Below are positions 43,180 through 56,438 of a stretch of DNA of 64,000 nucleotides, piece by piece. The translations under genes were made by a program, and so were the position numbers. The notes beneath the pieces were generated by a model. That model was not told the DNA's origin. It did no database searches and saw only the letters and a list, made by a program, of their open reading frames with translations. The DNA is from Escherichia coli. Lineage in GTDB: Bacteria > Pseudomonadota > Gammaproteobacteria > Enterobacterales > Enterobacteriaceae. Location: assembly GCF_016903815.1 (NCBI RefSeq), contig NZ_CP069973.1, one strand, 5' to 3'. The number at the start of each line of letters is the position of its first letter. The first letter of the stretch is position 1.

Positions 43180-43184
43180 GCTGA

Positions 43185-43255
43185 GCGGCCGGATAAGGCG
43201 TTCACGCCACATCCGGCCATGATGCCTGATACAGTCTTATCAGGCCTACCCGGCT
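43185..43255. repeat. BIME: two REP (palindromic unit) sequences between ypfN and ypfH
   Basis: gccggataaggcgttcacgccacatccggc (43188-43217) and gcctgatacagtcttatcaggcctac (43224-43249) match the REP pattern. Confidence 0.8.
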
Positions 43256-47092: not shown

Positions 47093-47806
47093 TCAGTCCA
47101 GCTGTACACCCAGGCGGCGGGCGACGGCTTCATAGGCCTCGATCAGGCCACCGAGGCTCTGGCGGAAACGGTCCTTGTCCATTTTCTCCAGCGTTTCTTT
47201 GTCCCACAGGCGGCTGCCGTCCGGGGAGAACTCATCGCCCAGTACCACTTCACCTTTGTACAGGCCAAACTCCAGTTTAAAGTCGACCAAAATCAGACCA
47301 GCATCATCGAACAGTTTTTTCAGCACGTCGTTCGCTTTGTAGGTCAGCTCTTTCATACGCGCCAGGTTCTCTTTACTTACCCAGCCAAAGGTTTCGCAGT
47401 AAGATTCGTTGACCATCGGATCGTGCATGGCGTCGTTTTTCAGGAACAGATCGAACAGCGGCGGGTTCAGCTCAATACCTTCTTCGATTCCAAGTCGTTT
47501 CACCAGAGAGCCAGCAGCACGGTTACGCACGACACACTCAACCGGCACCATATCCAGCTTTTTCACCAGACATTCGGTGTCGGAGAGCAGACGCTCCATT
47601 TGAGTCGGGATACCCGCTTCAGCCAGTTTGCTCATAATGAAGTAGTTGAACTTGTTGTTCACCATACCTTTGCGATCAAACTGCTCAATGCGCGCGCCAT
47701 CCCCTGCTGACGTATCATTGCGGAATTCGAGCACCAACAGGTCCGGGTTTTCCGTGCTGTATACGGTTTTCGCTTTACCACGATACAACTCAGCTTGCTT
47801 TTGCAT
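47093..47806 (-). CDS. purC: SAICAR synthetase PurC (237 aa)
   Basis: ORF track 47093..47815; start trimmed to ATG 47804-47806 ([13 protein letters not shown]...) with AGGAG SD. Confidence 0.93.
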
Positions 47807-47859
47807 CTTTATCACTCCTGGGTGTGAATTAACGTTTTAAAATCTTTTGCTGTCTGGTG

Positions 47860-47908
47860 TGCCGGATGTTTTGTCAGATGCGGCAAGAACGCCTTATCCG
47901 ACCTACGT
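47860..47908. repeat. REP (palindromic unit) element between bamC and purC
   Basis: gccggatg...gatgcggcaagaacgccttatccgacctac matches the REP pattern. Confidence 0.75.
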
Positions 47909-47959
47909 CCGACAAACAAATTTTGTGCGAATTACCGCTAAAATCGCATTTTTCTGCCG

Positions 47960-47975
47960 ACGCACACGTTTGCGT
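47960..47975 (-). promoter_or_regulatory. Candidate PurR operator (PUR box) upstream of purC
   Basis: Minus-strand ACGCAAACGTGTGCGT, one mismatch from the recalled palindromic PUR-box ACGCAAACGTTTGCGT; about 155 nt upstream of the purC ATG. Confidence 0.6.
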
Positions 47976-48018
47976 ATCATATCAGAAAAAAGGGCCGGAT
48001 GACTCCAGCCCTGTATTT

Positions 48019-49053
48019 TTACTTGCTAAACGCAGCCTGGAAGACAGCTACCAGCGCGTCGTTCTGACTCTGAGTCAGAGTATGACCTTTCGGATCGATG
48101 AACTGTAGGCTGCTGCGGTTATCTAAATCGCCAACCTGCAGTTTATAGTCACCGGATGCCAGGCCTGGATCGCTCGCGCCCAGTTCCTGCCAGTCGCTGT
48201 CAGACAGCGGCTTGTAAGTTACGGCCATGTTACCCTGCGAACGGGTGCTGTCGGTCACTTTCATGCCCACTTTTTCCAGCGCCGCTGGCAGACGTTGCCA
48301 AACCACATTGAACGGCCCGCGTACGACCAGCATCGGTAAACCGGTGTCATCAGCTGCACTTTGTACGTCCATAGTGGTGGAGGCACGATTTTGCGCAGCG
48401 TTCGCGGCGTCAGTGGCAGATTTATCCAGACCGGCGGAAATAACGTTCATCATCTCCGTGCTGTAACGCTGCATGGAAGCCGCGTCTGCAACCGGTTTGC
48501 CCGCCTGTTCCAGGTTCAGCAGTTTAACCGTAACCGCCTGCTGATAACCCTGCGGCTTAACAGAGATTTGATAACGACCACGATACTGCTCGTCTTCGTC
48601 CAGACGGTTCCATTGTACCCAATCGGTGGTCAGTGTCTGACCAGCATCATCACGTTGGGTGATGGTGTAGTTTTTCGCCTGCAGCACGCTAACCACCTGC
48701 GGCCACAGAGTATTGCCACGACCATTTTCCACCAGCAATGAAGCGGTATCGCCCGTGAACTGGGTACGCGCGCCAGAAACCAGTGCCAGCGGCTGGGCTG
48801 GTGGACGAATGTCCAGCGCCTTACCGACAGCACCACTACCGTTGGTCACCGGGATTGCATAATCACCGGAGGTCACCGGCAAAATCATTCCAGCCGGGGC
48901 ATGAAGCTCCGCAAGCGGTGCCGCTTCCAGGTAGGCTTCATCACCACTGACCTGACGCTTATAGCGTGAGTCAGAACTACAGGCAGCGAGTAATAAAACA
49001 AGCGAAACACCCGCAACCTTTGCCAGGCGCGACTTTTGAACAGAGTAAGCCAT
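48019..49053 (-). CDS. bamC: Outer-membrane protein assembly lipoprotein BamC (NlpB, 344 aa)
   Basis: ORF track 48019..49056; second Met taken as start; lipobox LAAC. Confidence 0.92.
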
Positions 49054-49069
49054 CAAATCTCCCTAAACT

Positions 49070-54998: not shown

Positions 54999-56438
54999 AT
55001 GGAAAATCTTGCTCTGACGACGTTATTGCTGCCTTTTATCGGCGCACTGGTCGTTTCGTTTTCGCCACAACGTCGGGCCGCCGAATGGGGGGTTTTGTTC
55101 GCCGCGCTGACCACGCTGTGCATGTTGTCACTGATCTCCGCGTTTTATCAGGCCGATAAAGTTGCCGTCACGTTGACGTTGGTCAACGTGGGGGATGTGG
55201 CGTTGTTTGGCCTGGTCATTGATCGCGTGAGTACGCTGATTCTGTTTGTGGTGGTGTTCCTCGGTTTGCTGGTCACGATCTACTCCACGGGTTATCTGAC
55301 GGATAAAAATCGCGAACACCCGCATAACGGCACGAATCGTTATTACGCATTTTTGCTGCTGTTTATCGGCGCGATGGCGGGACTGGTACTCTCTTCGACG
55401 CTGCTCGGTCAGTTGTTGTTTTTTGAAATTACGGGCGGCTGCTCCTGGGCGTTGATCAGTTATTACCAGAGCGATAAAGCGCAGCGTTCGGCACTAAAAG
55501 CGTTGCTTATTACCCATATCGGTTCGTTGGGGTTGTATCTTGCCGCCGCCACGCTGTTTTTGCAGACCGGAACGTTTGCGCTTAGCGCGATGAGCGAGTT
55601 ACACGGCGACGCACGCTATCTGGTTTATGGTGGCATCCTGTTTGCCGCGTGGGGGAAATCGGCCCAGCTACCGATGCAAGCGTGGCTACCGGATGCAATG
55701 GAAGCGCCAACACCGATCAGCGCCTATCTCCACGCCGCATCGATGGTGAAAGTGGGCGTTTACATTTTTGCCCGTGCCATTATCGACGGCGGCAATATCC
55801 CGCATGTGATTGGCGGCGTTGGCATGGTTATGGCACTGGTCACCATTCTTTATGGCTTCCTGATGTATTTGCCACAGCAGGATATGAAGCGGTTGCTGGC
55901 CTGGTCGACCATCACTCAACTTGGCTGGATGTTTTTCGGCTTGTCGCTCTCCATCTTCGGCTCGCGGCTGGCGCTGGAGGGCAGCATCGCCTACATCGTC
56001 AACCACGCGTTCGCTAAAAGCCTGTTTTTCCTTGTAGCAGGTGCGCTGAGTTACAGCTGCGGCACGCGCTTGTTGCCGCGTCTGCGTGGCGTATTGCACA
56101 CCCTGCCGTTGCCAGGCGTGGGTTTCTGCGTGGCAGCGCTGGCGATTACCGGCGTACCGCCGTTCAACGGCTTCTTCAGTAAATTCCCGCTGTTTGCCGC
56201 CGGTTTTGCGTTGTCAGTGGAGTACTGGATCCTGCTGCCCGCCATGATTCTGCTGATGATTGAATCGGTCGCCAGTTTCGCCTGGTTTATTCGCTGGTTT
56301 GGTCGCGTCGTGCCTGGCAAACCGAGCGAGGCCGTCGCCGATGCCGCACCGCTGCCAGGATCAATGCGCCTGGTGTTGATTGTACTGATTGTGATGTCGC
56401 TGATTTCCAGCGTAATCGCCGCGACCTGGTTGCAGTAA
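54999..56438 (+). CDS. hyfD: Hydrogenase-4 membrane subunit HyfD (479 aa, antiporter-type)
   Basis: ORF track 54999..56438. Confidence 0.92.
   Translation: MENLALTTLLLPFIGALVVSFSPQRRAAEWGVLFAALTTLCMLSLISAFYQADKVAVTLTLVNVGDVALFGLVIDRVSTLILFVVVFLGLLVTIYSTGYLTDKNREHPHNGTNRYYAFLLLFIGAMAGLVLSSTLLGQLLFFEITGGCSWALISYYQSDKAQRSALKALLITHIGSLGLYLAAATLFLQTGTFALSAMSELHGDARYLVYGGILFAAWGKSAQLPMQAWLPDAMEAPTPISAYLHAASMVKVGVYIFARAIIDGGNIPHVIGGVGMVMALVTILYGFLMYLPQQDMKRLLAWSTITQLGWMFFGLSLSIFGSRLALEGSIAYIVNHAFAKSLFFLVAGALSYSCGTRLLPRLRGVLHTLPLPGVGFCVAALAITGVPPFNGFFSKFPLFAAGFALSVEYWILLPAMILLMIESVASFAWFIRWFGRVVPGKPSEAVADAAPLPGSMRLVLIVLIVMSLISSVIAATWLQ

Follow-up and report, generated by a model that had tools for sequence, protein, structure and literature searches.

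The bamC–purC spacer of Escherichia coli: a PurR operator over the purC transcription start and a leader carrying a REP element

The spacer between bamC and purC in E. coli holds an operator-like palindrome and, between it and the gene, a repetitive extragenic palindrome (REP), and the question that the arrangement raises is a simple one: does transcription begin at the operator, so that the REP is carried in the leader of the purC mRNA, or does the operator lie unusually far from a promoter closer to the gene? In the window (the whole 64-kb stretch of DNA that was analysed) the genes concerned run dapA, bamC (nlpB), purC, ypfJ, tmcA on the minus strand, on which all features below are read unless stated otherwise. 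The spacer is bounded by the bamC stop codon, TAA at 48019–48021 (ORF 48019–49056, annotated as bamC in E. coli genomes), and by the purC ATG at 47806–47804 (+164), the first codon of a 237-residue SAICAR synthetase (47093–47806) that is present both in the ORF list and in E. coli annotation. The 421-nt region around the site is 100% identical to that of E. coli strain 7/2. We believe, with a probability of about 0.93, that the spacer is the canonical purC control region, composed of an extended −10 promoter, a PUR box over +1 and a 163-nt leader that bears the REP.

The PurR operator

The PUR box, ACGCAAACGTGTGCGT, occupies 47960–47975, from −6 to +10 relative to the purC transcription start, and 153 nt separate its end from the ATG. 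The preliminary description, made by reading the sequence unaided, had placed a PUR-box-like palindrome differing at one position at just these coordinates and about 155 nt upstream of the gene, and both statements hold: the 16-mer departs from the perfect palindrome ACGCAAACGTTTGCGT at a single position. It is a 16-bp imperfect palindrome that fits ACGNAAACGTTTGCNT with the central CG, and it is the sole match to ACGCAAACGTTTGCGT in the window, even when as many as three mismatches are allowed. By our own arithmetic, a match with at most one mismatch would be expected by chance about 0.0015 times in the window (49 × 128,000 / 4^16).

When purC is omitted and the 27 remaining PurR motifs of Cho et al. 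2011 (PMC3159470, Table 1) are made into a leave-one-out weight matrix, the box scores 18.8 bits, the highest value of 128,000 positions on both strands of the window, with the runner-up at 13.7 bits. This is far from the poor score that would have spoken against the site. Among the ChIP-supported sites the purC box ranks 18th of 28, the 27 others ranging from 11.1 to 25.9 bits; its G at position 11 is rare, the equivalent plus-strand C at position 6 being found in 1/27 of the other motifs. The runner-up, ACCGGAACGTTTGCGC at 55566–55581 on the plus strand, lies within a 479-aa ORF (54999–56438) and is probably a chance match.

The plus-strand reading of the box, ACGCACACGTTTGCGT, is the very motif listed for purC at U00096.2 2,595,794–2,595,809, and in K-12 this motif is covered by a PurR ChIP-chip peak (2,594,676–2,596,862) with a value of 2.08 with adenine against 1.52 without it; purC is one of the IMP-pathway genes that the authors regard as PurR-repressed (Cho et al. 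2011, PMC3159470). The ChIP data come from K-12-derived strains and the window from a different strain, with an identical 16-mer in both. Since the K-12 motif is identical and lies under the peak, ACGCAAACGTGTGCGT is the already documented purC operator. A review (PMC10912719) does not give the position of the purC operator. The site resembles the other operators of the pur regulon (purF, purL, purMN, purHD, purEK, purT and others) in being a 16-bp imperfect palindrome of the form ACGNAAACGTTTGCNT, in its adenine-raised PurR occupancy in K-12 and in serving an IMP-pathway target.

The operator is also conserved at the orthologous locus. Among 80 purC loci from other species, the identical 16-mer precedes purC in Escherichia, Citrobacter, Pseudocitrobacter, Enterobacter, Kluyvera, Pluralibacter, Siccibacter, Cedecea and others, and high-scoring variants of the box are found in Erwinia, Pantoea, Serratia and Providencia. 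Within E. coli, 5,425 of 5,426 complete genomes contain a 38-nt promoter/operator segment, which is at least 95% identical in all but 8 of 5,426 matching records.

A perfect 8-nt inverted repeat, TTTTTCTG / CAGAAAAA at 47949–47956 and 47983–47990, is placed asymmetrically around the −10 element and the PUR box; being off-centre from the operator dyad, it may be due to chance.

Transcription start and promoter

Two independent maps, both made in K-12-derived strains, fix the 5′ end of the purC transcript. Kim et al. 2012 (PMC3415461, supplementary file 2) place the start at U00096.2 2,595,803 on the minus strand with a 5′ UTR of 163 nt, and the dRNA-seq of Romero et al. 2014 (PMC4681348, supplement) places a reverse-strand purC start at 2,595,804. 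Carried onto the window by way of the upstream 51-mer printed by Kim et al. 2012, which ends TATGATACGCAAA / TGATATGATACGCAAA / CTGATATGATACGCAAA, these positions correspond to 47969, the seventh base of the PUR box, and to 47970, respectively. The leader thus extends over 47807–47969, its 163 nt being 47969 minus 47806. The window differs from K-12 at eight leader positions, none of them in the −10 element, the box or the start. In both lists (Kim 2012, PMC3415461; Romero 2014, PMC4681348) the stretch from the REP to the purC ATG is free of starts; the adjacent reverse-strand entries of Romero 2014 (PMC4681348) are within purC (2,595,462) and at dapA (2,597,807). One supplementary file of the ROSE study has no purC entry.

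With +1 inside the box, the promoter and the operator lie together, and the leader includes the REP at +64 to +97. This is one of the two arrangements that the preliminary description had put forward. The other, in which the operator acts from about 150 nt upstream and the real purC promoter lies 3′ of the REP near the gene, draws on the fact that the sequence alone leaves the promoter unfixed and that a consensus scan of 47700–48200 returned no canonical −35/−10 promoter. We reject it as extremely improbable, for both maps place the start in the box rather than downstream of the REP, there is a well-placed extended −10 at −15 to −7, and in relatives without the additional leader sequence this box and −10 are found some 50 nt before the ATG.

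The extended −10, TGaTATGAT, was read from the sequence at 47976–47984, with the TG at 47984–47983 (−15/−14) and the hexamer TATGAT at 47981–47976 (−12 to −7): a TGn directly before a near-TATAAT hexamer, at the usual distance of 6–8 nt from the mapped start. Directly upstream is the intrinsic terminator of bamC (47985–48012), identified in a terminator scan and composed of a hairpin of nine pairs, six of them G-C (48012–47991), and the T-run TTTTTT (47990–47985); hairpin and T-run are kept in 13 Enterobacteriaceae sequences and overlap the expected −35 position of purC. The −35 is poor, either AGTCAT or GAGTCA, with 0–3 matches of 6. The consensus scan demands a −35 match, and it found no promoter because the −35 position falls within the terminator hairpin and fits the consensus badly; its empty result was therefore not counted against a promoter. 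On these sequence features the purC promoter is assigned to the extended −10 sigma-70 type. It is like other promoters of this class in having a weak −35 and a TGaTATGAT whose last base is 7 nt upstream of the mapped +1, and unlike them in that its upstream part overlaps the terminator hairpin of the preceding gene.

The position of the box over the start (−6 to +10), where a bound repressor could interfere with transcription, differs from the general placement of PurR sites between −35 and −10 given by Cho et al. 2011 (PMC3159470), although it is within the polymerase footprint. Sigma-70 polymerase would initiate at the extended −10 directly 3′ of the bamC terminator, with +1 inside the box, and PurR carrying hypoxanthine or guanine would bind the box and repress purC. 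The box overlaps the −10 at its downstream edge and also the start point, so that PurR bound there should exclude RNA polymerase or block the open complex; judged by this geometry and by established PurR biology, interference with polymerase binding or with open-complex formation is most likely the way in which repression is brought about.

Both the box and its upstream context TTTTTTCTGATATGAT are identical in Citrobacter, Pseudocitrobacter and others; in the first two the end of the box is about 50 nt from the ATG, in comparison with 152–153 nt in E. coli and E. albertii. A different picture is seen about 50–90 nt before purC in four Enterobacter and Leclercia loci, in which the box is the same, AGTGCT or CGTGCC stands in place of TATGAT, and CATAAT/TAATAT is found directly 3′ of the box. 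In these loci the promoter may have shifted so that the box sits between −35 and −10, which would mean a fixed operator and a labile promoter.

The REP element and the inserted leader segment

The transcript carries, in the middle of its 163-nt leader, an insertion of about 103 nt with a single y-type REP hairpin. The REP (47873–47906) is oriented with GTAG first on the mRNA strand (47906–47903) and reads GTAG followed by GTCGGATAAGGCG-TTCTT-GCCGCATCTGAC, 34 nt in all. The preliminary description had located a REP between the operator and the gene at 47860–47908; the element is real, whereas that span was slightly too wide on the 3′ side. REPs are 30–40 nt long, with a 5′ GTAG and a mismatch in the stem, and 84 of the 584 in K-12 are single (Ton-Hoang et al. 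2012). In the purC leader the GTAG stands 5′ of the stem foot, before a 30-nt imperfect palindrome, and the pairing of GGATAAGGCG with GCCGCATC(T/C)G leaves two bases, AA against GC, unpaired; the folds of K-12 and E. albertii show the internal loop. The hairpin folds with −18 kcal/mol (z = −2.5), and the element is extragenic, lying between the bamC stop (48019) and the purC ATG (47806).

The copy is five substitutions away from what we take to be the canonical E. coli REP. Compared with other y-type REPs of E. coli, it is degenerate at the stem foot (GTCGGA...TCTGAC for GCCGGA...TCCGGC). The better-known sites of REPs are after a stop codon or between the genes of an operon, unlike the 5′ UTR position seen here. 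The REP belongs to a dispersed family: a 116-nt query with the REP core matches a median of 2 and at most 4 places per genome (E ≤ 1e-5), in contrast to one place per E. coli genome for a query of non-REP flank. At 43184–43217 of the window there is a second REP, GCCGGATGTGGCGTGAACGCCTTATCCGGC (minus strand), which together with a palindromic unit ending GGCCTAC forms a BIME-like pair (43184–43249) directly 3′ of a stop codon.

No known structured cis-regulatory RNA reached its Rfam gathering score in 47700–48100; the REP region matched naRNA4 with 28.2 bits, under the gathering score of 59.5. The likeness to naRNA4/CssrE (RF02564), a REP325-derived nucleoid-associated RNA, is in the REP hairpin sequence, and since the match spans about half of the model's content and purC has a single REP rather than a tandem BIME cluster, the leader is not a member of that family. 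On the plus strand, antisense to the leader, a terminator-like match at 47851–47868 needs G-T pairs (C-A on the mRNA strand) and, from its pairing, is regarded as an artefact of the scan.

The limits of the insertion were defined by alignment with Citrobacter, Pseudocitrobacter, Enterobacter and Pluralibacter. It is clean in Escherichia, and Citrobacter, Pseudocitrobacter and Enterobacter do not have it. Two 13-nt cores, CGGTAATTCGCAC (47937–47925) and CGTTAATTCACAC (47834–47822), enclose an Escherichia-specific segment of 90 nt (47835–47924, +46 to +135), or 103 nt counting one core, while Citrobacter has a single copy of the core directly before the Shine-Dalgarno sequence. The cores belong to a longer direct repeat that reaches about 32 nt with indels and was scored equally by none of 2,000 shuffles in local alignment of the leader halves: copy A (47925–47956, +14 to +45) is collinear with the short Citrobacter leader, and the last 13 nt of copy B (47822–47852, +118 to +148) are identical to the single Citrobacter copy.

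Whether other strains have the REP at this position had been an open point of the preliminary description, and they almost all do: 5,425 of the 5,426 complete E. coli genomes have the insert (at least 80% of the 116-nt query covered). The remaining complete genome has no match to the region at all, and one plasmid-classed record carries a copy. As Salmonella and E. fergusonii are outside the 80 loci compared, the comparison dates the insertion no more closely than to some time before E. coli and E. albertii split. In strain AMSCJX03, 12 nt directly 3′ of the REP are deleted (CAAAACATCCGG, window 47862–47873), bordered by short CATCCG direct repeats in a manner that resembles replication slippage.

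A direct repeat that flanks an insert, and is single-copy in Citrobacter, is what would be left by a MITE-like mobile element of about 103 nt that made a target-site duplication, and imperfect terminal inverted repeats, AAAATTTGTTTGTC ... GACAGCAAAAGATTTT, can be found by eye. We consider such an origin very unlikely. The 37 nt of non-REP sequence at the 3′ side of the insert occur in one copy per genome in 5,425 genomes, and within the window it is the REP core alone that recurs; the non-REP part being single-copy, the insert is not a dispersed MITE or transposon. Moreover, a repeat of about 32 nt with indels resembles a local duplication more than a target-site duplication of fixed length. 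The mobilisation of REPs by the TnpA-REP enzyme is not known to yield target-site duplications.

The same repeats permit the opposite history, in which the long leader is ancestral and the other genera shortened it by deletion: recombination between repeats of 13–32 nt would leave one copy, as in Citrobacter, and the AMSCJX03 deletion is an example of loss between short CATCCG repeats. Citrobacter, Pseudocitrobacter, Enterobacter, Pluralibacter, Leclercia and Phytobacter, by contrast, have short leaders or unrelated inserts. Since all the sampled genera with the same box outside Escherichia are of this kind, an ancestral long leader needs many independent identical deletions and is, in our judgement, distinctly unlikely.

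Insertions at this place are not peculiar to Escherichia. Unrelated hairpin-rich insertions of 60–190 nt lie between the box and the Shine-Dalgarno sequence in Kluyvera, Serratia plymuthica, Erwinia persicina and two Providencia loci. These independent events indicate that the spacer between box and Shine-Dalgarno tolerates insertions, and palindromic elements appear to land in the purC leader repeatedly.

Divergence and possible roles of the leader

The REP, once transcribed, could in principle act on purC expression as a stabiliser, as a BIME-like Rho-dependent attenuator or as part of a two-hairpin switch. Effects of REPs on mRNA decay are known, the insert is fixed in E. coli and found in E. 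albertii, and the stable hairpin has a competitor in E. coli, an upstream arm TTTGTCGGA (47908–47916) that can pair with the 3′ REP arm TCTGACAAA (47878–47870). The two form an inverted repeat, and their pairing is an alternative to the REP-internal hairpin among the alternative minimum-free-energy structures; an abstract by Tiedeman from 1990 is said to mention two mutually exclusive dyad symmetries in the purC leader.

Divergence from E. albertii argues against such a role. At the fourfold-degenerate sites of purC 17 of 106 differ (16%), and the leader outside its 3′ block has diverged by about 19%, as have the REP and its 5′ flank, near that value; 21 positions differ over leader columns 12–108, which take in copy A, the REP and the flanks, again much as expected of neutral sequence. 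No compensatory changes were found in the predicted pairs among four Escherichia sequences, a set too small for power, and in E. albertii the upstream arm, the competitor of the REP stem in E. coli, is broken. The hairpin is not followed by a U-tract on its 3′ side, purC regulation in many relatives manages with a REP-free leader of about 60 nt, and a literature search for a link between REP and purC returned no paper. A functional REP hairpin is on these grounds unlikely, and the REP is most likely a neutral passenger, apart from the PurR control, as far as few sequences allow this to be read. The small RNA GcvB was considered as well, purC of P. multocida being a predicted target; we set it aside, the nearest seed match in E. 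coli, CAAAACAU (+97 to +104), being neither kept in E. albertii nor present in strain AMSCJX03, where it is deleted.

Beside this diverged sequence, the 3′ end of the leader is invariant. The block CACACCAGACAGCAAAAGATTTTAAAACGTTAATTCACACCCAGGAGTGATAAAGATG, 58 nt including the ATG (47804–47861), is identical in the window, K-12, a second E. coli and E. albertii, for which the expectation at the neutral rate is about 4e-5 (0.84^58). The block contains the Shine-Dalgarno sequence AGGAG (47815–47819, +151 to +155), read from the sequence 8 nt before the ATG, of which GGAGT is invariant across 13 species, and it may be an extended translation-initiation region. It also takes in about 27 nt of the lineage-specific insert. 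From this pattern one might suppose that part of the insertion has been co-opted, with 47861–47807, including the approximately 27 nt rich in C/A and A/U that precede the Shine-Dalgarno sequence, serving as a translational enhancer or as a site for an sRNA or a protein. We hold this to be a speculative possibility; if true, Escherichia would have gained a post-transcriptional control of purC that is missing in its relatives, and the REP would be its vehicle or a by-product.

The operator, the REP type and the promoter type are already known or directly documented, and what is added here is small: how the REP-bearing leader insertion is built and in which lineages it occurs, a result of little significance beyond annotation. 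An unaided reading of the sequence did recognise the classical operator and guessed rightly that the REP is in the leader. For the biology of the locus, the purC leader is an example of how REP-bearing sequence enters a 5′ UTR without disturbing the overlapping operator and promoter, and the anatomy of the insertion (a duplicated stretch of the ancestral leader at its borders, fixation in E. coli and a putatively neutral REP beside an invariant block) could guide leader-deletion work.
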